Assembly (NCBI GenBank): GCA_902385655.1
Contig: CABMGO010000005.1
Span: 99,584-163,583, forward strand
Origin: an uncultured archaeon
GTDB taxonomy: Archaea > Nanobdellota > Nanobdellia > Pacearchaeales > GW2011-AR1
Direction: 5' to 3'
Length of the DNA stretch: 64,000 nucleotides
A program made the position numbers and the translations under genes. The notes below the pieces were generated by a model. That model searched no databases, had not been told where the DNA came from, and worked only from the letters and a program-made list of their open reading frames with translations. Of this stretch, positions 1,977-34,083 are shown piece after piece (positions within the stretch are counted from its first letter, which is position 1; each line of letters starts with the position of its first letter).

Positions 1977-2286
1977 AACCCATGTGAGCCCCAGCTCTTT
2001 TATGTCTACTGTTGATATGCTCCACTTTCTTTTCTAGAAATCCATCTTTCTGAGGAGTAATTGAATAACGAACACCCAGAGTAAAAAGTGCCAAAGAAAG
2101 CCGAGTAGGAGATTCAGTTTCAAGCATAGCTAATTTACCTTCAGGACAAAAAACTATTGAAGGCAACAGATCGACATAACCTAAGTCATAATTTGGCTTA
2201 GCAACTCGGCCCATGTAATCTCCATTCTCAAATGTAATAAATACTTCTCGTCCAATAAACTCATCAATAGGAGATCTTTCTGCCAT
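1963..2286 (-). CDS. Hypothetical protein (possible Sm-like fold)
   Basis: ORF only; weak resemblance. Confidence 0.3.
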   Translation of the reverse strand: MAERSPIDEFIGREVFITFENGDYMGRVAKPNYDLGYVDLLPSIVFCPEGKLAMLETESPTRLSLALFTLGVRYSITPQKDGFLEKKVEHINSRHKRAGAHMGFKQD

Positions 2287-2448
2287 AACTAGTTCGAGCC
2301 TAAAGCCTATTTAAATATTATTATAGTGTCACTAAGCAATTACAACAAAATGGAAACATTTATAAAGGAGTTTTTTATTGAGTCTGAGTAGTAAAAATGG
2401 CAATAGAATCAAGTTTAACAAATAAATTGAAGAAAGGAAAGAAATAAA

Positions 2449-8808: not shown

Positions 8809-10527
8809 ATGAAAAGAAATAAAAGAGGACAAGCATTAACGATCACACTAATAATCCTAATAATTGTTTTAATCAGTGGAGTTGTTTTACTATATATTAA
8901 TCCCAATAAACAAACAACAGAAAAATGTAATGTAGGTGGAAAAATAGATCCAAAAACGGGAAAATGTGCTTATCTAACTACAAAAGAAGACATAACACTT
9001 CCTCCAAAAACACCAATAAAGGAAAATAATACAAAAATTAATCCTAGAGTAAATATCACAAACCAAACAGCAATAAATTATACTAATTTTAATATTTCAG
9101 AATATGAAGACAATCCTTTTGGTTGGCATCCGGCTTATCCATATGCTAGCGCCTTTGATCTAGGCATTAGATGGCATAGAGATAATCTTATTTGGTCTTT
9201 AGTCCAGCCAGATATCAATAAGGAAGAGTATCAGTTTAAATTTGTGGACGGAGGTAAAAAGGGTAATTTTAACTATGATCAGAACTTTGGCGTTGAAACT
9301 GGAAATTTAAAAAAGATAATAACTATTTTCATTGAGAAAAATTCTCGGACCCCTACAAATTCTTGGGTACCAACTAACATAACAGCCTACCAAAAATATC
9401 TCCAAGTTTTAGTTGAAAGATATGACGGAGACGATAATTTAGGTTGCAAGATCGCTGCTCCAGATTGCTATTCGACTGGAGACAATATGTATCCAAGCCA
9501 AGAAGTTATTGATGGTCTGAAGAAAAACCCAATTAAATATTGGCAGGTAGAAAATGAACCAATTTCACTCAATAAAAAACTTGAAGGTTCAGACCCATCA
9601 AGTGATTTAACTTTTGCTCAGCTACAACGTTTGTCTTATGAAGCAATAAAAACTGCTGATCCTGCAGCTAAAGTCTTACTTGGTAGTACTTCAGGTGGAC
9701 CGGACGGATACATTTCTCAAACCTTAGACCCATGGCAACCAATATTGCAAACATTAGATGGAAAATACGCCGACATTTTTGATCTGCACTGGTATGGTTG
9801 TGCTAAAGGAGATTATCAAATATTAGATACAAGCAATGGACAAGATGTTTTGTCCTACCTAAGAGCAGAGCTTACCGAAACAGGTTTTCCTAATTTACCC
9901 ATTTGGATGACAGAAATGGGAACCAACTCCGGCCTAGCAACTGATGCTAATTGTGGATTACAAACAGAAGAACAACAAGCAAGTGATTATGTAAAGAGAT
10001 ACATTTATGGTTTATCTCACGGAATAAAAAAAATGTTTGGAATCTTAAGTCTTACAGAAGGAACATGGGACAACCCAGAAGATTACTTTAGCAAGACAGA
10101 ACTGATTTATGACGGAGAGGGTTCAAATGACCTCGGTGAAGGTGTTAAAAAACTATCTTATTATTCATACAAGTTAATGACTAATAAACTAGAAGGTTCT
10201 GATTGGAAAAATGTTTTAGAAATTTATAACTCGAGTAATGTTTACGCCTACAAATTCACAAATAAACAAACAGGAAACTTAACTTACATTGTTTGGTGGG
10301 ATTATTGGAATGAGCCAGAGTTAACAACTAAACAAGTAACTATCCCAATTTCTTTAAATGGCAACGTAAAAATAACTCAGGCTGTTCCCCATTTTGAAAA
10401 TGGGTTAATTCTTCAACAAAGCGGAGAAGACTATCCAAATTTTTTTGATACTGAGACTAAACAAGCGAGTAATGGGCAATTAAGTTTGAGTTTACTCAAA
10501 AATCCAGTTTATATAGAACAAGATTAA
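8809..10527 (+). CDS. Clan GH-A (TIM-barrel) glycoside hydrolase with a pilin-like class III N-terminal signal or anchor
   Basis: N-terminus MKRNKRGQ|ALTITLIILI; WQVENEP (acid/base NEP) and IWMTEMG (nucleophile E) motifs; an ORF-track start 9 nt upstream is also possible. Confidence 0.5.
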   Translation: MKRNKRGQALTITLIILIIVLISGVVLLYINPNKQTTEKCNVGGKIDPKTGKCAYLTTKEDITLPPKTPIKENNTKINPRVNITNQTAINYTNFNISEYEDNPFGWHPAYPYASAFDLGIRWHRDNLIWSLVQPDINKEEYQFKFVDGGKKGNFNYDQNFGVETGNLKKIITIFIEKNSRTPTNSWVPTNITAYQKYLQVLVERYDGDDNLGCKIAAPDCYSTGDNMYPSQEVIDGLKKNPIKYWQVENEPISLNKKLEGSDPSSDLTFAQLQRLSYEAIKTADPAAKVLLGSTSGGPDGYISQTLDPWQPILQTLDGKYADIFDLHWYGCAKGDYQILDTSNGQDVLSYLRAELTETGFPNLPIWMTEMGTNSGLATDANCGLQTEEQQASDYVKRYIYGLSHGIKKMFGILSLTEGTWDNPEDYFSKTELIYDGEGSNDLGEGVKKLSYYSYKLMTNKLEGSDWKNVLEIYNSSNVYAYKFTNKQTGNLTYIVWWDYWNEPELTTKQVTIPISLNGNVKITQAVPHFENGLILQQSGEDYPNFFDTETKQASNGQLSLSLLKNPVYIEQD

Positions 10528-18817: not shown

Positions 18818-20341
18818 CTAAGCTATTCCGAACCTGCTCAAAACCTCTTTAGGATCTCTGTAATAGTCATTAATTAACCTCTGAAGAGAATCAAAATCGA
18901 CCTCTTTTCCACGCTTATATATTTCATAGATTAATTTAACCCTTAAGTCAAAATCCTCTTGTAATTTCTGAACAGCTATTCCGTTTTTCTGTTCAATTTT
19001 CTTAAAAACATGATTTTCTCTTTTATAAAAGAACTTATCTCTTGCAGGATCCCAAATAAAGGGAGTATTTGTCTGAAATGTTCCATCAGGATTTACATTG
19101 ATTACCTCGACAATTTCTCTCAACTTTCTTGTCTCCTTCCCATTTACAACAGCATGAGCCATAATTGCTACCGCGTCTAGCTCATTTACAAGTGTTGGTG
19201 ACAATTCAATAGGGGGAGTTTCAAGTCTTCGAATAACTGTCTCAACAGAATCTGCGTGTATAGTGCTAATAGAAGCGTGACCTGAAGCCATACCCTGAAA
19301 CAAAACGCTAGCTTCCTGACCTCTAACTTCCCCGACAATTACATAATCCGGCAACTGTCTGAAAGAAGCCCGAAGTAAACTGAACATATCAACCTCGCCA
19401 ACACCTCCAGCAGTAATTCCAGTTCTAACTACAGAAGGCAACCAATTTTCCCGAGATAAATTCAATTCACGAGTATCTTCAATCGAAACAACTCTTGCTT
19501 CTGGAGGAATAAAAAATGCAATCGCATTTAACAAAGTAGTTTTACCCGAACCAGTTCCACCTGCAATTAAAACATTTAATTTGTATTGCATCATCATCCA
19601 AAGATAAGCTAACATCTCTGGAGAAAGAGTTCCAAAACCAACAAGTTGAATCGGAGTCCAAGGTGTCTTAGTAAATTTTCTAATTGTAAAAGTAGGTCCT
19701 CTAGAGGTAATGTCTTTTGAATAAGTTGCATTTACTCTTGAACCATCAGGTAAAGTACCATCTAAAACTGGAGAAGCATAAGAAATATATCTTCCACATT
19801 TTTGAGCCAATTTCTCAACAAAACTCGCAAGTTTTTCCATATCATTAAACTGCAATTTTGTTTTAATATTCCTAAAAATTCTATGAACAATAAAGACTGG
19901 TTGACCAATTCCATTACATTGAATATCTTCTATAAAATAATCATGCATCAATCCTTCAATCTCATTCAAACCAAAAAAGTTACGATAAAGAAAATAAAAT
20001 ATTTTATCATAAGACTCTTCTGAAACTTCTAATGCAGACTCCGAAATAACTAATCTAAGTAGCTTGTCTAAATAAGTTTCAGAATCTTGGCCGTCCTGAC
20101 TCATTACGGTGCTTACATTAATCATTTCTCGAAGAGAAGATTCGAGTTTGTCTAACAGCTCTAGTTCAGATTGATCCAATATTGGCTCCTCTAAATCATA
20201 AACAACTTCTCCCTGTTTTTGATCCCAATAAATATGAGCATTTGCATAAGGAGCAATTAAAGGATAACGAATATCAATCAAAGTTCTATCAGGACTAAAT
20301 TGAATCGTAGGAACTCGCACATTATAGTTTAATCTAGACAT
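18818..20341 (-). CDS. Archaeal type IV pilus/archaellum-type assembly ATPase (FlaI/TadA/CpaF family)
   Basis: Walker A AGGTGSGKTT, VSIEDTRELNL, conserved His-box region. Confidence 0.85.
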   Translation of the reverse strand: MSRLNYNVRVPTIQFSPDRTLIDIRYPLIAPYANAHIYWDQKQGEVVYDLEEPILDQSELELLDKLESSLREMINVSTVMSQDGQDSETYLDKLLRLVISESALEVSEESYDKIFYFLYRNFFGLNEIEGLMHDYFIEDIQCNGIGQPVFIVHRIFRNIKTKLQFNDMEKLASFVEKLAQKCGRYISYASPVLDGTLPDGSRVNATYSKDITSRGPTFTIRKFTKTPWTPIQLVGFGTLSPEMLAYLWMMMQYKLNVLIAGGTGSGKTTLLNAIAFFIPPEARVVSIEDTRELNLSRENWLPSVVRTGITAGGVGEVDMFSLLRASFRQLPDYVIVGEVRGQEASVLFQGMASGHASISTIHADSVETVIRRLETPPIELSPTLVNELDAVAIMAHAVVNGKETRKLREIVEVINVNPDGTFQTNTPFIWDPARDKFFYKRENHVFKKIEQKNGIAVQKLQEDFDLRVKLIYEIYKRGKEVDFDSLQRLINDYYRDPKEVLSRFGIA

Positions 20342-22488: not shown

Positions 22489-22983
22489 CTAGCAAGATAA
22501 AGACTGTTTAGAAATGTAATTACTACAATATACATTTTTTCCATTTTTTTTCAAAAATGGTTGAACATCAACAAAAGTTAGATAACCAGAAATATTTTTG
22601 TGAGGAATTTCATCTGTCTGATTAACTAAAGAATAATAATCTGAATAAACTTCACCAGCAGCCAAAGGTTTTCCAGTCCTATTTAAGGTATAAAGCCCGA
22701 GCTTTGCCAAAGTCAAGTTGTTTACACGAATTATGTATCCATCAACATCAAAAAGCCCTTTATTCTCAATAGTCAAATTGAGAGATTTTGTAGCACAAGA
22801 ATAATTATAGTCCCTAATAACTAATCCCACATTTTCTTCACACTCAGCAAGACCATTTTCAGAAGGAACGTAATCCTTCAACCAAACATAAACCATACCT
22901 GCCAAAGAAAGCGAAATAGAAATAAGCAAAACATAGGCAACAATTTCGCTAACTGCTCGTTTACCGGCGACTTGAACTACCAT
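22489..22983 (-). CDS. Class III signal-peptide pilin
   Basis: MVVQVAGKRA|VSEIVAYVLLISISL; TGATG overlap with the upstream gene. Confidence 0.6.
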   Translation of the reverse strand: MVVQVAGKRAVSEIVAYVLLISISLSLAGMVYVWLKDYVPSENGLAECEENVGLVIRDYNYSCATKSLNLTIENKGLFDVDGYIIRVNNLTLAKLGLYTLNRTGKPLAAGEVYSDYYSLVNQTDEIPHKNISGYLTFVDVQPFLKKNGKNVYCSNYISKQSLSC

Positions 22984-23624
22984 CAACCACCTTCCTGAGC
23001 AGACAACAAATTTCCTGCAGTAGTATTAGCTCTAAAAACAAAGTAATACTGATTGCTGGATGCCTGTGCTTTAGTCAAATCAATACTGTAATTTATTCCT
23101 CCAGACTCAACAGTTAAATTCTGATATGAGTTGATGTTTACCTTACTACTTTTTGGAGAATGATGAACACTACTCGTAGATGCGCCACCACTAATTCCAG
23201 TTTCAACAGTCGTTGTTCCTGGCCCGATGCTAACTGGCAACTGAGAAGGCAAATAAAGAATAATATCATAATTACCATAATTGTCACAAGTTAATTCATT
23301 CGAAGAAGTAGTATAACACGTAAAAATATCCAATTCTGGATAAGAATTCAAAACCGCAGCAACACTATCATTTACAAAATTAGCTACTTGAGAATTTCCG
23401 CTATAAAGACTGTAGTCTACCACTGCACCAGTCTCCTGATTTAATTGAGAACTATAGCTATAAAATTTTTTAGAAGATTCAGGAACATTAACAACATTGT
23501 AAACAACGCCCAAACCGATAATAATCACAGCAAGAATAACTGCCGCCAAAATAAAAAACTGACCTTTCCTATTTAGAATTTGAAATTTGAAATGATCCCT
23601 CTGGGAACCCCTTTTACTTTTCAT
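22983..23624 (-). CDS. Pilin-like protein (start reassigned to the first ATG)
   Basis: NRKGQ|FFILAAVILAVIIIG; conserved promoter CGAAACATTAATAAATG ~25 nt upstream. Confidence 0.5.
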   Translation of the reverse strand: MKSKRGSQRDHFKFQILNRKGQFFILAAVILAVIIIGLGVVYNVVNVPESSKKFYSYSSQLNQETGAVVDYSLYSGNSQVANFVNDSVAAVLNSYPELDIFTCYTTSSNELTCDNYGNYDIILYLPSQLPVSIGPGTTTVETGISGGASTSSVHHSPKSSKVNINSYQNLTVESGGINYSIDLTKAQASSNQYYFVFRANTTAGNLLSAQEGG

Positions 23625-23643
23625 AGATAACAAACATAATAAG

Positions 23644-23664
23644 CATTTATTAATGTTTCGCGAG
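23644..23664 (-). promoter_or_regulatory. Pilus-type promoter motif CTCGCGAAACATTAATAAATG (BRE/TATA) ~25 nt upstream of the pilin ATG; near-identical motifs at 18684-18704 and 15676-15700
   Basis: Three-way conservation at equivalent distance from start codons. Confidence 0.5.
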
Positions 23665-23756
23665 GGATAATAGAATAGTATTTATATTTCCGAAACGAAT
23701 GAATCAACTTGCCCGATACTTTTGAAAAATAAAAAACCTTCTCAGAAAAAAATAAG

Positions 23757-24014
23757 TGCAAACCCCGGGGTTCGCGCAACATCACAAAAAAGAGGTCACA
23801 AATCGTCCTCAGTCTTGCTACCCTTTAAGCATCTAAACTATAACTTAGGGTTGCTCCGATCAAGGCCTCACCCGATTCACCATAGAGAGATCGAAAAGGA
23901 CAAAACCTCAACGTCAGATAAATGACATTTTGTGGTCAGTCTTACTCTCCCCATCGGCCCGCCATGAAGTCCGTTTGCGGAATGCACGGGACTAGCGTGC
24001 TGCCAGGTTTGCAA
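23757..24014. ncRNA. GC-rich (~50% vs ~30% background) candidate structured RNA of ~260 nt closed by a terminal helix TGCAAACC/GGTTTGCA; identity undetermined (SRP RNA or RNase P RNA are candidates)
   Basis: Compositional island in an intergenic gap; internal hairpins (ACCCUUUAAG...CUUAGGGU; GUCC...GGAC); TATA-like and T-rich flanks on either strand. Confidence 0.4.
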
Positions 24015-24087
24015 ATATAAGAGTTTTCGAAGAGTTTTAAGTGTTTCGGTTAGGTAAATATTTAAACAAACTTCCCTAACAAAACCC

Positions 24088-25023
24088 ATGAATAAAATAA
24101 TAAATTTTATACTCACAATAATCTTACTAGGTGCACTCGCTTACGTCGGATATACAATATATCAGTATCTTCCAGCAGAAAAACAAATTCTTAACATTCA
24201 AACAGAAGCTAAACTTCCAGAAGTAAATGCGTCTTCAACAGTTACTCAATTTGTTCCAAACATGAGATTTGCAAAAAGCGACTTGAGTTATTTTTTCTAT
24301 CCTGGCTGCAGTCAAGACAAAGAAACAAGAATGAAGGAAGCATTTAGCACTATTTCATCACAGACAGGAATAATAACTTTCACAGAAAAAACAACTTTAC
24401 AAGAAGCAGACATAAAAATATTCTGCTCAGAAGTTCAAAAGGAAGTAAAACCAAATCAGTTCATTGCAGGAGAGGGCGGGCCAGATGAATTCCTTAACCT
24501 AAGTTTATATCCATTAATAGTTTCTGGAGAAATTTATCTTTACGATACTCTCTACAGGGACAAGTGCGACTATCCCCTCGTAGAATTACATGAACTCTTA
24601 CATGTATTTGGATTTGACCACGTAAATAAAAAAAGTTCAGTTCTTTATCCTTACTATTCATGTGGACAACAACTAGATTCTTCAATTGTAAACGAGTTAA
24701 TAAGAATTTATTCAATAACGCCAAAAGCAGAATTACATTTTGTAAACGCTAGCGCATCCAAACATGGCATTTATCTAGATTTCAAAACGCCAGTAGAAAA
24801 TCGAGGTTTAATAGAAGCAGAAAATGTAACAATTGTTTTATACTCGCAAGGAAAAGAAATAGCTAATTTTGACATGGGAAATATCTCTCCGGGAACGACA
24901 AAGAGCATAACTATTCAAAACCAAATTCTTCCTTCAAGATCAACTTCCGAGATAGAGTTCAGTACAATTTCAAATACTCAAGAATATTTTTCAGAAGACA
25001 ACCAAATTAGCGCAAAATTGTAA
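24088..25023 (+). CDS. Membrane-anchored metzincin-type zinc metallopeptidase
   Basis: HELLHVFGFDH (HExxHxxGxxH) motif; N-terminal TM anchor. Confidence 0.55.
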   Translation: MNKIINFILTIILLGALAYVGYTIYQYLPAEKQILNIQTEAKLPEVNASSTVTQFVPNMRFAKSDLSYFFYPGCSQDKETRMKEAFSTISSQTGIITFTEKTTLQEADIKIFCSEVQKEVKPNQFIAGEGGPDEFLNLSLYPLIVSGEIYLYDTLYRDKCDYPLVELHELLHVFGFDHVNKKSSVLYPYYSCGQQLDSSIVNELIRIYSITPKAELHFVNASASKHGIYLDFKTPVENRGLIEAENVTIVLYSQGKEIANFDMGNISPGTTKSITIQNQILPSRSTSEIEFSTISNTQEYFSEDNQISAKL

Positions 25024-25066: not shown

Positions 25067-25149
25067 GCCGACATCGCATAGTGGTATTGCATCAGGTTGC
25101 TAACCTGAGCCCTTTACTGGGCCCCAGGGTTCGATTCCCTGTGTCGGCG
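25067..25149 (+). tRNA. tRNA-Ser (anticodon GCU), long variable arm, no encoded CCA
   Basis: Manual fold: acceptor GCCGACA/TGTCGGC, anticodon stem TCAGG/CCTGA with loop TTGCTAA, variable hairpin GCCC..GGGC, T-arm CAGGG-TTCGATT-CCCTG. Confidence 0.85.
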
Positions 25150-25560
25150 TTGAATAGATTGAGCAAAGTGAAATCTATTGAAATCTGATTCTGGAATCGA
25201 ACCTAGGTTCGTATTCCCTGAAAAAATTTCGCTCTTGAGAAATATTTGCGTTAGCAACTAAAGTTGAGAAAAGTACAAGAGCAAAATTTTTTGTGTCGGC
25301 GTTTATGCTATCGAAGAATGAGATAGCAATTATTCTACATGGAATTGAACCCTGGGTTCGACGAATAAAACGCTCCGAGAAAATATTTCTGTCAACTAAA
25401 TTTATTTTCGAGGTACATTTTGTGAGCCTCCCTGTGTCGGCGTTTTTTCTGGCTTCACAAACGTTTCTAAAAATGAAGAGCAGAAAAAACGAAGTCGAGA
25501 TGTGTTTTTTGAAAAAGGTTGCTAACCTGAGCCCTTTACTGGGAATGAAGCGCCTTGATT
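25150..25560 (+). repeat. Tandem degenerate ~145-155-bp repeats; two units end in a 12-15-nt copy of the tRNA-Ser 3' end, and one carries a 28-nt exact copy of the anticodon-stem/variable-arm segment
   Basis: CCCTGTGTCGGCGTT at 25137 and 25434; TGTGTCGGCGTT at 25294; AGGTTGCTAACCTGAGCCCTTTACTGGG at 25095 and 25517; unit-internal hairpin GGAATYGAACC..GGTTCG. Confidence 0.6.
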
Positions 25561-25616
25561 TCGATTACAAAAAACTTTCTGAAAAAGCTTATAAATAACA
25601 AAAACAAATAGTTACT

Positions 25617-26171: not shown

Positions 26172-27040
26172 ACTTTTGAAAGTTTCTTTAGTCTATTTTC
26201 TAAAACAGGCAAACTAGAATTAATTTTTTGAAGCCTCTCATGATACGAACTTGTTCTAACGTTATAAGTTAAAGCAGATATCTTATTCTCTTTAAATCGA
26301 TCAGTTTGTGCCTTTTTAATAAGTTCAGAAAGTGTGCTTTTCTCAGAATGTAATTTTCTAACTGTCATCCTCAAAAATCTAATTCTTAATTTAACATAAA
26401 CAAAATAAGTAAAGAAAATTAATATAACAATAAAAATAGTTATCTGTATCCAGTATCGATAAAAAAAGTTTCTCGCCTGTAATGCCAAACTTTTGAAAAT
26501 AGAATTATTTCCATATTCAGAATCATAAGAAGTTCTAAAACTCTCTAAATAGGTTTGAGACTCATTTAGCCTACCATTATAAAAAGAATCTCGCGCCAAT
26601 AAAAAGTAGTTAGAAGTTTCATTAGAAATAGGATCAGATAATTTTTTTTGCTCAAGATTTAACAGATCATACAAATCCAAAGTTTGCGAGCGAATATCTG
26701 AAACTCGGTTTGTCAAAGCAACGACATCTGAATACTGCAAATTCTTCCAATTTATAAACTGAAGTGCACTTCTTGCATCAATTCTTTCTTGCAAACTAGA
26801 ATTAACTTCTCCACGCAAAATTTGAGCATAAAGAACTTGTATGTAAACATTCTTCGCCTCGACAATTGTATCATTGATATCTGAGTAAGGCAAACTAAGA
26901 TTGATAAACTCATTCAAAATTTTTTCACTATTATTTATTGCGATCAATGCATCTTGAGCAGAATATGTCTGATTTGCTTCCGCCGCTAAAACAAAACTTC
27001 CAAAAAATAAAAATAGCGATAATAAAATTAACTTTTTCAC
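26168..27040 (-). CDS. Secreted or anchored coiled-coil protein (signal peptide, C-terminal TM anchor preceded by FFYRYW, short cytoplasmic tail); GTG start, GTGA-coupled to the giant gene
   Basis: N-terminal signal MKKLILLSLFLFFGSFVLAAEA; C-terminal TM; overlap aaGTGAaa. Confidence 0.5.
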   Translation of the reverse strand: MKKLILLSLFLFFGSFVLAAEANQTYSAQDALIAINNSEKILNEFINLSLPYSDINDTIVEAKNVYIQVLYAQILRGEVNSSLQERIDARSALQFINWKNLQYSDVVALTNRVSDIRSQTLDLYDLLNLEQKKLSDPISNETSNYFLLARDSFYNGRLNESQTYLESFRTSYDSEYGNNSIFKSLALQARNFFYRYWIQITIFIVILIFFTYFVYVKLRIRFLRMTVRKLHSEKSTLSELIKKAQTDRFKENKISALTYNVRTSSYHERLQKINSSLPVLENRLKKLSKV

Positions 27041-30000
27041 TTTGTAGCCACCTGCAAATATTTGCCTTCATATTTATCTTGGTTATTAACCAAATGCAAG
27101 GTGGTTTTCTCATTTTCTATTTCAGCGAGTCTCTCAGTGTACATCTCAAACTCAATGTCATACTCTGCCTTAGAAATTAATTTCTTTTTGAAATAATTTT
27201 CCTGCAATCTCACTATTTCAGATTCAACTTGCTTCGCTTCCAATTCTAAGTCCTTAGAAACTTGTTGAGCACTTAAAAGTTTTATCCGATTATTCCTTAA
27301 ATTAACTCTAGACTTCTTAATATTTGCAATTCTCTTCTGATATCTGTTCATCTCATCATGATAATCATGTGCAGACTTTCTTCCAGAAAGATACAATTTC
27401 TGAGAATGCTTTCTCAATTCTCCAATAGTCTTCTCTTCCTTATTTAGATCCTCTATTTTTTGAGAAATAGAATTTTTCTTATAAGCTCTAAAGCCTACAA
27501 TAGACACAAAACTCAACAAAATCAAAGCAACTAAAACGTATTGCCAGTACAGATAAAAGAACAACCCAACATTACCCTTTCTCTCTAAGACAAGAAGTAC
27601 TTGCGCCTGTCTCGCTCTCTCGAGTGCAAGTTCATAGTCTCCCCTCTCAAATGCTGCAGAAGCCAGATCAATAATCTCTTGAACATCTTGACTTGCAAAA
27701 ACTGCCTTACCTGTCACGTAATCAAAACTAGAAACACTTTGATTGTTGATATTAACTTCCCGAGCAACATTTCCGACAATTAAATTTGTCTTTGCAGGAT
27801 CATTCAAAGCAGTGACCAACCTGGCTATTAAATCATTCACAGTAAACGCCATCTTGCTAATGTCTATGACTTGTGAAGATAAATCGAAAGACTCCTTATT
27901 TCTTCTTATATCCAATTTAGATTTTGCTTGGTCAAACAAACTCTGAACATTAACCACATTAAATAAGTGCTCAGTCATATTCTTAAGTGCCTTCTCAGCA
28001 TCAAATAACTTATTACTAGCAACCTCATAACTTACTTCTTGAATGATTAATTTAATATATTGTGTTTCAGTATAATCACCGACAGTTTGATTATAAACAA
28101 TCTGTCCTCTAATATGTGCAGTAACATTATATTCTTCGTAAGCTTCCTTGTATGAAGGAACCTTCAAGGTAACAGTAAAAGATCCATTGGAGTTTGGACC
28201 AAGATATTTAATAATTGAAGGATAAAAGTCCATGTATTGAGACAAATATCCTGTTAAGTTAAGAGACAGATTTTGAAGGCTTGCCCCAGAACGATTATTT
28301 TGAACAACAAGATCGAGCTTGCCCCCCTCACCTCGAACAACATCAATTATTTTCGAATAAACTATTTCAGCTCCCCCGCCACCGCCGGCCTGGCTACTAA
28401 TTGTTCCGCCACCGCCGGCCTGAACAACAGTTTGAGTAATAGTTAGTGGATTTGTAATTCTTATATTCCTTAAATCAGAGGCGCTATCAGCATTAGATGA
28501 ATTAGCAAGAGCAGAAACATTAACAATTGAACCCGATATTGAAGAAGAAACATTTATCTTAATTGAATTTGTTCCAGAAACACCTACCGGAACAGTACCT
28601 AGATATCTAGACAGTATTCCAGAAGTTAAATCAAAACCTGAAGGCAAACTCCAGCTAAGATAAACGTCGTGAGCGTCAGCAGTTCCAAGATTAGTAACTG
28701 AAACAACAAAGTCTAGATCTCCTTGCCCTCGAGTAACTGAAGATGAGTATGTGTCAATAGAAACCGATAAATAAGGACCAGAAGCAGTTTGAACATTTAA
28801 GTTTCTTTCAATCACAACAGTTCCAGCTTCAGATCTAACAGTTATGTTATAAGGATAAAGAGCAGAAGTTAAACCAGTTAAGTTAACATACAGGGGAAGA
28901 TACAAAACATCTCCAGAAGATGCAGAATAATTTTCAGTTTGATTTAAAGTGTTATTCAAATTAAATCTGCCAACAATATCAGCACTCGCACTAATTGAAA
29001 CATTATAATTCAAAGAAGTATCCGAAGTTGTATTTAAAATAATGTAACCTAACTCATTGGAAGAACTTCTTTCGGTATAAGTAAAAGATTTCACAACAGT
29101 TATATTTGTACTGATAGCCTGAGAAACATCAGGATAGACACCAAGAGTATAGTTCGAAGAAATATTAGTATTGCCTTGCGCATCACTAGCATTAACATAA
29201 AATGTCCAGTTACCTTCGGCAAAAACAATGGAAGTATTATAATTCGTTAAGCTATTATTTGTCATCAGAGAAGTTGACCAAGAAGAATCTGAAATATTTT
29301 TATAATAAACTATTGCGCTACCCATCAAGTAATTATCACTAACTGTTGCATTTATTGTAACATCTACCCCCGGATCAAGTTCGTCACTAGTATTTGGAGA
29401 ATAAATTATTTCGCTAACTGATGGAGCCCGGTCATCCAAAACTGTCACAGTTCGACTTACACTATCATTAACTCTTCCAGCCAAATCAAACAAATAAACT
29501 TGAATAGAATAGACTCCAGGAGTATAATTTCCTTGAGTAAACAAGTAATTAATTGAATCAGCTGTTCCGCTCAAATCAATCTGAGAACCATTTACAAAAC
29601 TTCCGGAGAAATTATTACTTAATATTGCATAATCTAATCCAACAGCATCGGAAAAAGAGGCATTACATGTCAAATTTTTAGAATCATTAACTGTATTGTC
29701 ACAATTAAAAGAGTTTACAGAAGGGTTATTCAAATCCACACTCACAACCACAGTTCTATTTCCTTGATTTTTATTTGAAGAAGTATCATTCGCATAAAAA
29801 ATAATATTGTGTACTCCTTCAGCTAAACTAATAGTTGCATTCCAATTTCTCAAACTAGTATTACCCAAGTTAAATATACCAGAACCATTATTATATCCAG
29901 CCCAAGAAAGATCTTCGTTAGTACTTATATTCAATAATACGGAACCATCTAAGTCATATGAATTATTTAATGGAGATAAAACAGTAATAACTGGTGCAAC

Positions 30001-33000
30001 CAAATCGTTTACAGTCGTATCTACAACAATACTAACATTTGCAATTCCTAAATTGCCAGAACTATCAATTGCATAAAATATAACAGTATAACTTCCATCA
30101 GCAAGAGTCGAAGTTTTACTCCAGCTTACACCACTTCCAGTTAAAGAAACATTTGTTGTGCCTCCATCTAAACTATAATTTACTGAAACTACTTCCTCGT
30201 TTGTCGTTAGACTAAATAAGATAGAACTAGTCGAATAATTCTGAGCAATGGGAGAATTAATTGTTAAGACTGGAGCAGTCACATCATTTACATCGAAGGT
30301 AGTCGAAGTTGAATCCGTATTTCCTGCAGCATCAGTTGCATAAAATCTACAAGTGTAATCACTTCCTTTTTGAACATTTATAATAGTATAATTAGCATAA
30401 CCTGTAGAACTTAAATCGATTGTATGATTCATAAAAACCATCGGAGTAGTAGCGTCTTCACTAATTTTAACACTTGATAATGCGAAACTATCATTAATAT
30501 AGGCTGTACAATTCGCATTCTGAGTTTCATTTACAGATGTAGCCGAAACAGAACTGAATCTTGGAGCAAGAGTGTCCGCATAAAAAATAATTGAAGAACT
30601 ACCAATATTCCCAGAACTATCATTAGCATAAACCACTAAACTATTTGTAGATTCTTGAGCCAAGTCCGGAAGAGTTGCATTCCAGTTCAAAAGAGTAGTA
30701 TTGGTCAAAGAAATATTTGCACTTCCATTAAGAGAATATTTAACCCAGCTAACATTTTCATTAACACTTACATTTAATGCAACCCCGCTCAAAGATTTAT
30801 AAGAAGCATTTGCAATAGAATTTATCGTAACAACAGGAGAAATAAGATCTCCAGCACCAGTATTTATACTGAATACTACCGCACTAGAAACTCCTAAATT
30901 TCCAGAAGAATCATTTCCATAAAAGACAATAGAATATGCTTGGCCACTTACACCAGTAAAAGTTGCATTCCAATTCGTAGGTGAAGTATTTCCCATAGAA
31001 TAATTGAATCCAGTAGAATTGAGATGATACCAACCAGCAGACAAATTCTCATTTGAAATAAAACTGAATAATATATCTACCTGATTATAAACTCCACCAT
31101 TAGTTGGACTTGTTACAGTAATAGAAGGAGCAGTCACATCACTTACACTAAATGATGCAGAAGTAAAATTAGTATTCCCAGCTACATCAGCTGCGTAAAA
31201 TCTACAGACATAATTTCCAGCGTTAGCCAATTTACTTCCAACAATTACATAACTAGCTAATCCAGAATTTCCAGAAAATGAAATTGTGTGATTTTCAAAA
31301 CTACCTAAAGAATTTTCAGAAATAATTACTGAATTTATATTATAAGTGTCATTCCAGTAAATAGAACAATTTACAGGCAAAGACTGATTTGTCGAAGGTG
31401 CAGAAACAGAAGAATACCTTGGAGCCAAAGAATCAGCATAAAAAACAATTGTCCTGTTACCTTGATTTGCAGAACTGTCATTGCCGTACACAGTAATAGT
31501 ATAATTTGTTTCTTGACTCAGAGAAGTTAAATTAACATACCAAACTCTTGCAGTAGCACTCGTCAAATTCAATAAACTTCCACCGTTCAATCTATATCCT
31601 GCCCAAACCAAATCTTCGTCAGAACTAACATTAACATATGTTCCAGAAGGATTAGTATAGCTAGCATTAGATGGAGAAACAAAAGTCAAAGAAGGAGCAG
31701 TGATGTCTACTGGAGTTTGAATAGTAAAATATCTCAAAACACTAGATCCAAAGTTTCCAAAACTATCATTCGCATAAAAAGTTATGTTATGCAAACCATA
31801 AGCTAAGTTATTCAGACTTGCAATAAAAGAAGTTGATGAAAGATTAGTCATCGAAACATTTGCCGTGCCGTCTAAAGAATATCTTGCTGAAGCAGAAGCC
31901 TCTGAAGTTGCAATTTCAGCACTAATATTTACAGAAGAAAAACTAGTATTAGTCGGAGAAATAATTGTTATAGTTGGACCTGTTGAATCAGTTGTATAAC
32001 TTCCAGTCAAAGGATTTGCAGTAGCAGATTCATTCAAAGCATCTAAAATGTATGCATACCAATTATGTGTTGCAGAATCACTTTCAGAAGCAAACCCACA
32101 ACTAAGATTCGCAATAGCAGTTGCAAAGCAGTAAGTTCCATAGGTACATCCCGAGTTCGATATTCCAGATTGATTACAAACATACAACTTAATCGTCTGC
32201 CCAGAATCTGAATCAGAAGAAACTGTTGAAATGCTAACTGTCGTCCCGCCCAAAATTGTAGCAGCATTATCCGTTGCAGAACTAAAAACCGGAAGTTGAT
32301 TTATTTTTATTGTTTTACTAACTAGTGTTTGATTGTTACCTGAATAATCCGAAGAAAAATATCTCAAGTAATTTGTGCCTCTAACTAAAAAATTTATCTG
32401 ACCAAGATTATCTATCGCACCAGAAGGAGTACAAGTATTTGTTGAATCAGTACAATAATATGTTTTAGGATCAGAGTCAACATTATCTGCCTCGCTAATA
32501 GTTACTGCATACCCAGGTAATTGAACACTAGAAACCGAATTATCCGAAGTTGTTGGCGCAGTATAATCTAAAGTAAAATCTACATTCAAATTATCAGAAG
32601 CAGTCTGCTCATTTCCGTAAGAATCTTTACAAGAAACGTATCTCGTTGTTGCACCCTGAGAAACCACATCACTAACATTACAAGCAGCATATATTCCAGA
32701 AATGCTGCATTGATGACCTGAAGACATAGAAGAATAAGAACTATCTGAACTACTCCATCTGCAACTCATTCCAGATTGACCTGAGATATTTATCAGAGTA
32801 AATAAATCATTAACATTATCATAGTAGGGCGCAATAGTTCTCCCAGCAACACTTACAACAGAAGTAGACATTGAACTTCCGAGAACTGTGTAAGTATAAT
32901 TTACTTTATTAGAGTAAGAAACTCCATCGTACATCCTACAATAAATAGTATAATTTCCTGCGACTTTATTAGGAGTATAAGTACAATAAGGAGAGTAAGG

Positions 33001-34083
33001 ACTTAATAAATTAGAAACATTTCCTGAAGAACACATAGAGTTGTCTACTGGAAAAAGTGGAAAACTATCTGAACAATAAAATTGAAGAGTATCAAGATTA
33101 CTATCATTAACACTGTTGGCAGTAATATTCAAACTAGTAGAAATTCCGGAAGGATTTGGAGAAACAGTAATATTAGAAATAGTTGGAGGTAGATTAACAA
33201 AAAAAGTTAACGAGCTAGATGCATTATTTCCATAACTATCGTTTGCATAAACATACCATGTGTGGCTTCCAACAGAATCTGTCAAACCCGAAGTGATGTT
33301 TACCTGAACTCCAGAAGTGCAACTAAAACTTATATTTGTCCCATTACCATTATACCAACAAGACGCCAAATTATTATCACTAACAGTTACATTAAGACTT
33401 GTAACATTCGAAGTATAAGTAGTGTTCAGGGGATAAACAACATTTATTGAGGGAGGAATAGCATCAGGAGTATAAGTAACATTAAAATAAAGATCATCTA
33501 CGCTAAGTGTCTTCGCACCACCGGTTGTTGAAGCAACCTGTAAATATGCAATCGCTCTTGATCCCGAAGCCGTAAAAAAACTATCACAAGACCAATTTTC
33601 AATAGAAGTTACATCAGTACAAATTTCTCCAGGATTTGCAGTTGTTCCCGGACAAACACTAGAAGCAGTTTGATAAGAACCACCGGCATGTGCATCAACA
33701 CTGACACTACAAGTACCAATAGAAGAAGAGCTAGACCACCATTCATAACAAACTTTTACATTAGTAATCCCTCCGCAATTAGAAACACTAGAGTTATAAT
33801 TAGAAGTTCGAATACCCATAAACTGATTATTCCCATTGACAGAAGCACTCTGAATAACTGCATTATTAGTATCAATACTTGTTGTAGAACTACAAACTCC
33901 ACCGAACCCTTCACTAATCCCACTATTATTTTCTACAGCACAAGCCTGCGAAACCAAAACACTATTGGGAGAAGTTGCTCCAGGAAAAGCAAAAGCAGCT
34001 AATACACCAGCCAAACTCAAGAGAACAATAAATAAGAAAAAAACAGAAGAAATTCTTAAATTAGCTAATTTTCCAATAATCAT
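27037..34083 (-). CDS. Giant (2348 aa) cell-surface protein: N-terminal signal/TM, >20 Ig-like ~90-aa repeats extremely rich in N-x-S/T sequons, Gly runs, C-terminal TM anchor (FFYLYW...) and ~220-aa cytoplasmic coiled-coil tail
   Basis: SD GGGAGGAG 9 nt upstream; repeated motif AP..T..SP.N.SY...NE...Y.L.G...N.T...W...FYANDSSGN; hydrophobic helix near aa 2095-2120. Confidence 0.85.
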   Translation of the reverse strand: MIIGKLANLRISSVFFLFIVLLSLAGVLAAFAFPGATSPNSVLVSQACAVENNSGISEGFGGVCSSTTSIDTNNAVIQSASVNGNNQFMGIRTSNYNSSVSNCGGITNVKVCYEWWSSSSSIGTCSVSVDAHAGGSYQTASSVCPGTTANPGEICTDVTSIENWSCDSFFTASGSRAIAYLQVASTTGGAKTLSVDDLYFNVTYTPDAIPPSINVVYPLNTTYTSNVTSLNVTVSDNNLASCWYNGNGTNISFSCTSGVQVNITSGLTDSVGSHTWYVYANDSYGNNASSSLTFFVNLPPTISNITVSPNPSGISTSLNITANSVNDSNLDTLQFYCSDSFPLFPVDNSMCSSGNVSNLLSPYSPYCTYTPNKVAGNYTIYCRMYDGVSYSNKVNYTYTVLGSSMSTSVVSVAGRTIAPYYDNVNDLFTLINISGQSGMSCRWSSSDSSYSSMSSGHQCSISGIYAACNVSDVVSQGATTRYVSCKDSYGNEQTASDNLNVDFTLDYTAPTTSDNSVSSVQLPGYAVTISEADNVDSDPKTYYCTDSTNTCTPSGAIDNLGQINFLVRGTNYLRYFSSDYSGNNQTLVSKTIKINQLPVFSSATDNAATILGGTTVSISTVSSDSDSGQTIKLYVCNQSGISNSGCTYGTYCFATAIANLSCGFASESDSATHNWYAYILDALNESATANPLTGSYTTDSTGPTITIISPTNTSFSSVNISAEIATSEASASARYSLDGTANVSMTNLSSTSFIASLNNLAYGLHNITFYANDSFGNFGSSVLRYFTIQTPVDITAPSLTFVSPSNASYTNPSGTYVNVSSDEDLVWAGYRLNGGSLLNLTSATARVWYVNLTSLSQETNYTITVYGNDSSANQGNRTIVFYADSLAPRYSSVSAPSTNQSLPVNCSIYWNDTYNINSVIISENSLGSFENHTISFSGNSGLASYVIVGSKLANAGNYVCRFYAADVAGNTNFTSASFSVSDVTAPSITVTSPTNGGVYNQVDILFSFISNENLSAGWYHLNSTGFNYSMGNTSPTNWNATFTGVSGQAYSIVFYGNDSSGNLGVSSAVVFSINTGAGDLISPVVTINSIANASYKSLSGVALNVSVNENVSWVKYSLNGSANISLTNTTLLNWNATLPDLAQESTNSLVVYANDSSGNIGSSSIIFYADTLAPRFSSVSATSVNETQNANCTAYINDSFALSSVKISEDATTPMVFMNHTIDLSSTGYANYTIINVQKGSDYTCRFYATDAAGNTDSTSTTFDVNDVTAPVLTINSPIAQNYSTSSILFSLTTNEEVVSVNYSLDGGTTNVSLTGSGVSWSKTSTLADGSYTVIFYAIDSSGNLGIANVSIVVDTTVNDLVAPVITVLSPLNNSYDLDGSVLLNISTNEDLSWAGYNNGSGIFNLGNTSLRNWNATISLAEGVHNIIFYANDTSSNKNQGNRTVVVSVDLNNPSVNSFNCDNTVNDSKNLTCNASFSDAVGLDYAILSNNFSGSFVNGSQIDLSGTADSINYLFTQGNYTPGVYSIQVYLFDLAGRVNDSVSRTVTVLDDRAPSVSEIIYSPNTSDELDPGVDVTINATVSDNYLMGSAIVYYKNISDSSWSTSLMTNNSLTNYNTSIVFAEGNWTFYVNASDAQGNTNISSNYTLGVYPDVSQAISTNITVVKSFTYTERSSSNELGYIILNTTSDTSLNYNVSISASADIVGRFNLNNTLNQTENYSASSGDVLYLPLYVNLTGLTSALYPYNITVRSEAGTVVIERNLNVQTASGPYLSVSIDTYSSSVTRGQGDLDFVVSVTNLGTADAHDVYLSWSLPSGFDLTSGILSRYLGTVPVGVSGTNSIKINVSSSISGSIVNVSALANSSNADSASDLRNIRITNPLTITQTVVQAGGGGTISSQAGGGGGAEIVYSKIIDVVRGEGGKLDLVVQNNRSGASLQNLSLNLTGYLSQYMDFYPSIIKYLGPNSNGSFTVTLKVPSYKEAYEEYNVTAHIRGQIVYNQTVGDYTETQYIKLIIQEVSYEVASNKLFDAEKALKNMTEHLFNVVNVQSLFDQAKSKLDIRRNKESFDLSSQVIDISKMAFTVNDLIARLVTALNDPAKTNLIVGNVAREVNINNQSVSSFDYVTGKAVFASQDVQEIIDLASAAFERGDYELALERARQAQVLLVLERKGNVGLFFYLYWQYVLVALILLSFVSIVGFRAYKKNSISQKIEDLNKEEKTIGELRKHSQKLYLSGRKSAHDYHDEMNRYQKRIANIKKSRVNLRNNRIKLLSAQQVSKDLELEAKQVESEIVRLQENYFKKKLISKAEYDIEFEMYTERLAEIENEKTTLHLVNNQDKYEGKYLQVATK

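Follow-up and report, generated by a model that had tools for sequence, protein, structure and literature searches.

The GC-rich island at positions 23757 to 24013 of the DNA analysed here (a stretch of 64,000 nucleotides, referred to below as the window) can be identified, with a probability that we put at about 95%, as the SRP (7S) RNA gene of a DPANN archaeon. The gene lies on the minus strand and specifies a reduced form of the RNA, from which helix 6 is missing. The identification is carried by a match to the Rfam family Archaea_SRP (RF01857), by 80 relatives and by the covariation found among them. An essential housekeeping gene is hereby assigned in a lineage in which annotation at Rfam thresholds fails, spurious ORF calls over the gene are flagged, and the alignment of 81 sequences could serve as the basis for a lineage-specific covariance model. 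The features are listed in order of position.

22983-23633, minus strand: last pilin-like ORF, one border of the gap that holds the island
23722-23925, plus strand: short ORF of 67 aa
23746..23755, minus strand: putative oligo-T terminator UUAUUUUUUU, immediately 3' of the 3' strand of helix 1
23757..24013, minus strand: gene identified as SRP (7S) RNA, about 256 nt (RF01857 match, 80 relatives, covariation)
23757..23764, minus strand: helix 1, 3' strand GGUUUGCA (covariation)
23766..23843, minus strand: helix 5, 3' strand, with conserved GAUGCUU...GGGU.GCA...GAG
23840..23883, minus strand: helix 8, the arm that binds the SRP54 M domain (Rfam alignment and covarying stems)
23877-24116, minus strand: short ORF of 79 aa
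23880..23953, minus strand: helix 5, 5' strand, with conserved GACGUUGAGG...UGUCC; pairs with 23766-23843
23883..23888, minus strand: junction where helix 6 would branch, with about 1 nt in place of 40 model positions
23922-24020, plus strand: short ORF of 32 aa
23959..24001, minus strand: Alu domain, with helix 3 at 23983-24001 and helix 4 at 23959-23980, both covarying
24006..24013, minus strand: helix 1, 5' strand UGCAAACC, pairing with 23757-23764 (the "terminal helix" of a preliminary description)
24035..24048, minus strand: putative archaeal promoter, TATA box with BRE-like element
24088-25023, plus strand: metzincin (matrixin/CARDB protease) gene, the other border of the gap

The island and its match to the Archaea_SRP model

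A preliminary description of this DNA, made from the sequence alone, had noted a gap of about 450 bp between a pilin operon and the metzincin gene, and in it a GC-rich island in AT-rich DNA whose ends are complementary. The gap, bounded by the last pilin-like ORF and by position 24088, measures 454 bp. The stretch 23757-24013 has 49.4% GC against a window mean of 33.4%, and the spacers on its two sides have 27.6% and 29.7%. No other 257-nt stretch in the 64 kb is as GC-rich; the standard deviation among stretches of this length is 3.5%, and the fraction of them that reaches 49.4% is 6e-5. Such a peak is what one expects of a structured RNA where the genome is AT-rich. Another GC-rich stretch, less pronounced (19152-19423), is part of a T2SSE-type ATPase gene and is therefore coding. 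The ends of the island, TGCAAACC at 23757-23764 and GGTTTGCA at 24006-24013, form an exact 8-bp complement, so that the end coordinate of 24014 given previously is one base too long; the helix ends at 24013. Taken on its own an 8-bp inverted repeat is not significant, and when the single sequence was folded on both strands its energy was no better than that of shuffled sequences (z -1.17 and -1.56). Its covariation in the relatives nevertheless shows the terminal helix to be real.

We give next to no credence to the idea that a small protein gene, either the 67-aa ORF on the plus strand or the 79-aa ORF on the minus strand, lies behind the GC excess. These ORFs do exist and some gene callers would annotate them, but they match no Pfam family below an E-value of 0.088, in 26 of 81 relatives the RNA is not overlapped by any open stretch of 60 aa or more, and in the remainder the strand of such a stretch varies. 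Substitutions are, moreover, paired across stems and not arranged codon-wise. A conserved ORF was accordingly rejected as the source of the GC excess, and the short ORFs, having no Pfam family and no conservation in relatives, are artefacts of the kind that the preliminary description had supposed.

The genes around the island are archaeal, namely pilin-like proteins with T2SSE and T2SSF homologs, RtcB and KaiC, and homologs of the protease bear Pacearchaeota or Nanoarchaeota names. An ORF of 2348 aa (27037-34083, minus strand) adjoins the region. A near-palindromic A/T box, TAAATATTTAAA, stands at 24055-24066 on the plus strand, some 25 nt ahead of the start codon (ATG, 24088) of the protease gene. 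It is conserved in a syntenic relative (L003) and probably serves a leaderless protease mRNA as its TATA box, in which case two divergent promoters would share the 74-bp spacer. Pieces of the tRNA-Ser(GCU) gene at 25067-25149 recur downstream of it as direct repeats, within 25067-25560. Its 3' end, TCCCTGTGTCGGCGTT, is found again at 25288-25303 (81%) and 25429-25444 (100%), the segment comprising the anticodon and variable arm is repeated at 25517-25543, and there is an inverted copy of the T arm at 25337-25356; a called ORF (25293-25598) crosses these fragments, which look like remnants of a tRNA-gene duplication or of integrations into the tRNA (att-like repeats).

Positions 23600-24150 were scanned on both strands against Rfam with an E-value threshold (E up to 10). 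Archaea_SRP matched from 24013 to 23757 on the minus strand, over model positions 1-317, with a covariance score of 64.9 bits and an E-value of 2.6e-14, and the next-best Rfam family in the same segment had an E-value of 1.8. The alignment made by Rfam includes helix 1, the Alu helices 2, 3 and 4, the long helix 5, and helix 8 together with the AGG/AGCA loop that it bears. With 64.9 bits against a gathering score of 96.5 for the family, the window RNA does not reach the curated cut-off, because helix 6 is missing and the helix 8 loop is not of the GNRA type. A scan of the whole window at gathering score reported tRNA-Ser only, with no SRP match anywhere in the 64 kb. Two of the aligned relatives, L078 (101.2 bits) and L087 (96.9 bits), do pass the gathering score, and so the window RNA is linked by full-length alignment to members that Rfam accepts at the curated threshold. 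When relatives were scanned at gathering score, only those that bear a GGAA tip on helix 8 were detected.

The size and GC enrichment of the island would suit any stable non-coding RNA, and no canonical motif had been seen in it by eye, as might be the case if it were RNase P RNA or a wholly new structured RNA. To this reading we assign a vanishingly small probability, since every helix is explained by the SRP model; RNase P RNA in particular was rejected, no RNase P family having appeared at E-values up to 10 on either strand of 23600-24150. That visual inspection had not revealed the motifs of SRP RNA is explained by the orientation of the gene: on the minus strand, where it lies, the helix 8 core, GGUGAAUCGGGUGAGGCC-UUGAUC-GGAGCAACCC, is plain. 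The preliminary description had favoured a stable structured non-coding RNA gene, naming SRP RNA first, and proposed Infernal searches of Rfam and comparative covariation as checks. Both have borne it out, the former by a minus-strand match to Archaea_SRP that spans the whole model and the latter by the strong covariation described below. It had added that the RNA might be divergent or novel; the RNA is indeed divergent, in that it scores below the gathering score, and it is not novel, in that the SRP model accounts for every helix.

Relatives, covariation and transcription signals

Relatives were sought with two independent DNA search patterns, one anchored in helix 8 and used on genomes, the other anchored in the Alu domain and used on metagenomes. 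The genome scan, with a 19-mer from helix 8 and one genome per species, found ten archaeal loci in records titled Woesearchaeota, Nanoarchaeota or "archaeon"; nine bacterial matches and one from Nitrosopumilaceae were discarded as chance, having no similarity outside the 19-mer. The 19-mer fixes the tip of helix 8, and for this reason the metagenome pattern was placed in the Alu domain. It gave 105 loci, of which 71 were distinct and complete, one of these (L088) being a chance match that was set aside. The relatives comprise 80 full-length homologs from Woesearchaeota/Nanoarchaeota MAGs and from metagenomes, and the alignment, A3, holds 81 sequences, each 256-264 nt long. One syntenic relative, reached by way of the metzincin gene, is L003, where the RNA has the same neighbours as in the window. 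In L001, whose protease is 57% identical, the position of the SRP RNA is taken by an ORF of 97 aa (2117-2410, minus strand) with no Pfam family, and synteny of the RNA with the protease is therefore limited to close relatives.

RNAalifold applied to A3 gave 70 pairs, with compensatory changes in 53 of them. For the pair counts, the loop-loop pairs were added to the RNAalifold structure, making 75 pairs and 5,916 cells. Standard pairs occupy 95.6% of these cells compared with 82.3% in column shuffles, and shifting the 3' partners by 1-3 columns lowers pairing to 39-51% (maximum 50.8%). Both sides of the pair have changed at 54 of the 75 pairs. On none of five measures did any of 500 shuffles reach the observed value. 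These paired changes, together with the invariant residues of the SRP54 site in some 80 homologs, indicate purifying selection on a working RNA. The island encodes a conserved RNA with SRP architecture, which is under selection for its fold and in which the SRP54-site residues do not vary.

Helix 1 is paired in 97.2% of cells and has compensatory changes at 5 of its 6 pairs; GCAAACC/GGUUUGC, GUAGACC/GGUCUAC, GUAGAGG/CCUCUAC and GCAGGCU/GGCCUGC are among the variants found in relatives. Helix 2 is present in the Rfam alignment. In the Alu domain the loops AGUCC (23989-23993) and GGACU (23968-23972) are complementary, and all 79 distinct sequences preserve their pairing, an invariance that was partly forced by the search pattern; L023, which was not picked by the Alu-domain pattern, has the single double change, AGCCC/GGGCU. 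The linker between helices 3 and 4 is AUU, and the UGUNR motif is missing. Helix 5 has compensatory changes at most of its pairs. A local 7-bp hairpin, AAUGUCA/UGACGUU (23911-23930, minus strand; RNA 84-103), was rejected as the main fold, as it is paired in 73.6% of cells against 90-99% for the competing helix 5. It forms in the window RNA and in some relatives, with some paired changes, and may be a folding intermediate or a coincidence.

The same data bear on whether the gene might be a decaying or accessory paralog, while the canonical, helix-6-bearing SRP RNA is encoded at some other locus. The 64 kb in view are only a part of the genome, and the score is under the gathering threshold, as would suit such a copy. 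About 80 homologs from different samples, however, retain the fold by compensatory changes and keep the SRP54-site residues invariant, and no other SRP match at gathering score was found in the window or in the loci of 15 relatives that were scanned with Rfam. We consider a paralog of this kind quite improbable.

Upstream of the RNA there is a TATA box, TTAAAA, at 24035-24040 (-28 to -23), preceded by a purine-rich, BRE-like CGAAAC at 24043-24048 (-36 to -31). When the upstream flanks of 75 distinct relatives were aligned on the conserved 5' G, they gave the consensus cAAAA..tTTAAAaA at the same distance, that is, an A/T-rich box (tTTAAAaA) at -29 to -22 with a purine-rich element immediately upstream. 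From their position and this consensus we infer that the TATA and BRE-like elements are the promoter of the SRP RNA gene. Their spacing would place the first transcribed base at about G 24012, and the 3' end is predicted near 23757. Archaeal RNA polymerase terminates at oligo-T, and the run of seven T at 23746-23752 is a likely terminator; 50 of the 81 homologs have four or more T in a row in the 30 nt that follow the RNA.

Helix 8, its tip and the missing helix 6

Helix 8 carries the loops to which SRP54 binds. Its asymmetric loop is GAAUC/UAA and its symmetric loop is GAGG (23866-23869)/AGCA (23852-23855), which together give the AGG/AGCA and asymmetric-loop arrangement, and the stems that flank the loops covary. 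The residues A137 A138, A146 G147, G153 A154, G160 C161 A162 and U167 A168 A169 are invariant in all 81 sequences. The apex of the helix reads CC-U[UGAU]C-GG, so that the loop (23858-23863) is a URRU loop and not a GRRA tetraloop. An archaeal survey found the GRRA loop of helix 8 in all the groups that it covered (PMC2905702), and in some bacteria GNRA is replaced by URRC or URRU (PMC4091067). A URRY-type tip is present in 69 of the 81 homologs (one of them UGAC) and the canonical GGAA tip in the other 12, including L107, a member of the window's own subclade; the middle G and A of the tip loop are invariant across A3. The repeated exchange of GGAA and URRU within one clade bears on the part that the RNA tip plays in docking to the receptor.

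In the Rfam alignment a block of about 40 model positions, which follows the 5' strand of helix 5 and precedes helix 8, is reduced to 1 nt. We take helix 6 to be the sole element at this site in the archaeal SRP RNA layout. L078 and L087, the two that pass the gathering score, have the same 40-position deletion, with 0 nt left in L078. In all 81 homologs the segment made up of distal helix 5 and helix 8 measures 64-66 nt, and helix 6 is therefore absent from every one of them; the consensus fold of A3 (RNAalifold) contains no additional hairpin. There is accordingly no helix 6 with a GNAR tetraloop, the site of SRP19, in the RNA, and with helix 6 the canonical SRP19 site and the adenosine clamp between helices 6 and 8 would, to judge from the anatomy, be gone as well.

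This anatomy predicts that SRP19 is absent from the lineage, or is present in it without its helix 6 role. A small SRP19 HMM, built on sequences from M. jannaschii, A. fulgidus and human that were verified against the PDB, was run on six-frame translations of 779 kb and gave one weak match, in L023; the SRP19 gene need not adjoin the RNA gene. The match falls in a 118-aa ORF that resembles a DNA methyltransferase (PCHRVV motif) and was rejected as SRP19. The portion of the window covered by the analysis does not contain the SRP54 gene.

The helix 6/SRP19 module has, to our knowledge, been regarded as a shared part of every archaeal and eukaryotic SRP. A survey from 2010, in which DPANN were not included, found that SRP19 coexists with helix 6 and that both occur in every archaeal group then known (PMC2905702). 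The same paper poses the question "SRP19, is it required?", and SRP19 is dispensable in Haloferax (PMC2905702). A search of the accessible literature on SRP RNA and SRP19 in DPANN found no earlier description of a variant that lacks helix 6 and bears a URRU tip, and this variant appears to be common to a large DPANN clade.

Tentatively, and with slightly less than even confidence, we propose that this clade, represented by MAGs labelled Woesearchaeota and in some cases Nanoarchaeota, has a two-component SRP after the bacterial pattern, made of SRP54 and RNA, in which helix 6 has been lost, the tip is mostly URRU, and SRP19 has been lost or become redundant. If this is true, it would be the first lineage of archaea in which the helix 6/SRP19 module is missing and a natural experiment on the archaeal need for SRP19, and it would account for the unannotated SRP RNA of such genomes. 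The data suggest that evolution has already deleted the module in a large and widespread archaeal clade, in which case archaea with reduced genomes have converged on the bacterial SRP layout.

In the working scheme that we envisage, the gene would be transcribed from its own BRE/TATA promoter, beginning at about G 24012 and ending at the T7 run just past 23757. As covariation shows, the RNA of about 256 nt folds into the rod of SRP RNAs, its ends closed by helix 1, with an Alu domain of helices 2-4 joined by kissing loops, followed by a long helix 5 that runs coaxially into helix 8; helix 8 would be stacked directly on helix 5, in bacterial fashion. By analogy with what is known of the family, the M domain of SRP54 would bind the two conserved internal loops of helix 8 and the Alu domain would contact the ribosome. 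The particle would capture signal peptides on translating ribosomes and dock on the membrane receptor FtsY, and in this way deliver nascent secreted and membrane proteins. Its anatomy predicts that a particle of SRP54 and RNA could do so without the helix 6/SRP19 clamp.

Comparison with known SRP RNAs

In its bacterial-like layout the RNA might be taken for a "large" SRP RNA of the Bacillus type that was gained by horizontal transfer, and not for a reduced archaeal RNA. Its set of helices and a URRU or URRC apical loop are known in bacteria (PMC4091067), and the S domain of one relative, L115, scores as Bacteria_small_SRP with 48.1 bits. For the window RNA, L078 and L087, however, the best member of the clan is Archaea_SRP, over the whole model, although only the top clan match was reported. 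Helix 1, the pairing of the 5' and 3' ends, which is listed with the small-domain helices of archaea (PMC2905702), is found in the RNA and covaries, the TATA/BRE promoter is to all appearances archaeal, and the gene is conserved throughout the DPANN clade. We therefore hold acquisition from bacteria to be improbable and keep to a reduced archaeal SRP RNA.

In L115 the S domain (9865-9962, minus strand) has a GGAA tip and no helix 6, and the scan at gathering score assigned it to Bacteria_small_SRP (48.1 bits, threshold 40). Automatic annotation could thus mislabel such genes as bacterial 4.5S RNA.

The window RNA resembles the RNAs of Archaea_SRP (RF01857) in matching the whole model, in having the archaeal helix 1 and the Alu helices 2-4 with their tertiary loop-loop pairing, in its long helix 5 with the conserved UGA...GUCC region, in a helix 8 with AGG/AGCA and an asymmetric loop, and in its host and putative promoter, which are archaeal. 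It departs from them in that helix 6 is gone, the tip is U-UGAU-C in place of GRRA, UGUNR is lacking, and the RNA is about 256 nt long as against 317 model positions. The UGUNR motif is missing from several archaeal orders as well (Table 2, PMC2905702) and is therefore not strictly defining.

With the Bacillus-type large SRP RNA (RF01854) and the 4.5S RNA (RF00169) the window RNA shares an S domain in which helix 5 leads directly into helix 8, the absence of helix 6 and, as predicted, that of SRP19; the Bacillus-type RNA also has an Alu domain. Unlike the bacterial SRP RNAs, it has helix 1, a promoter that appears to be archaeal and an archaeal host, it lacks UGUNR, and the archaeal model fits it best; it cannot be counted as a member of Bacteria_large_SRP (RF01854), since Archaea_SRP was the best match in the clan, of which only the top match was reported. 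The bacterial-like layout looks like convergence by loss and not like membership.

Other archaea have SRP RNAs that depart from the standard form in ways of their own. The SRP RNA of Thermoproteus is permuted and circularised (PMC4731332), and that of Thermoplasmatales has an AAAG loop on helix 6 (PMC2905702). The window RNA is like these in being a lineage-specific departure that makes the gene hard to find and that bears on the need for SRP19. The Thermoproteus and Thermoplasmatales RNAs, however, keep helix 6, whereas the window gene is collinear, with paired ends, and has lost the entire arm.
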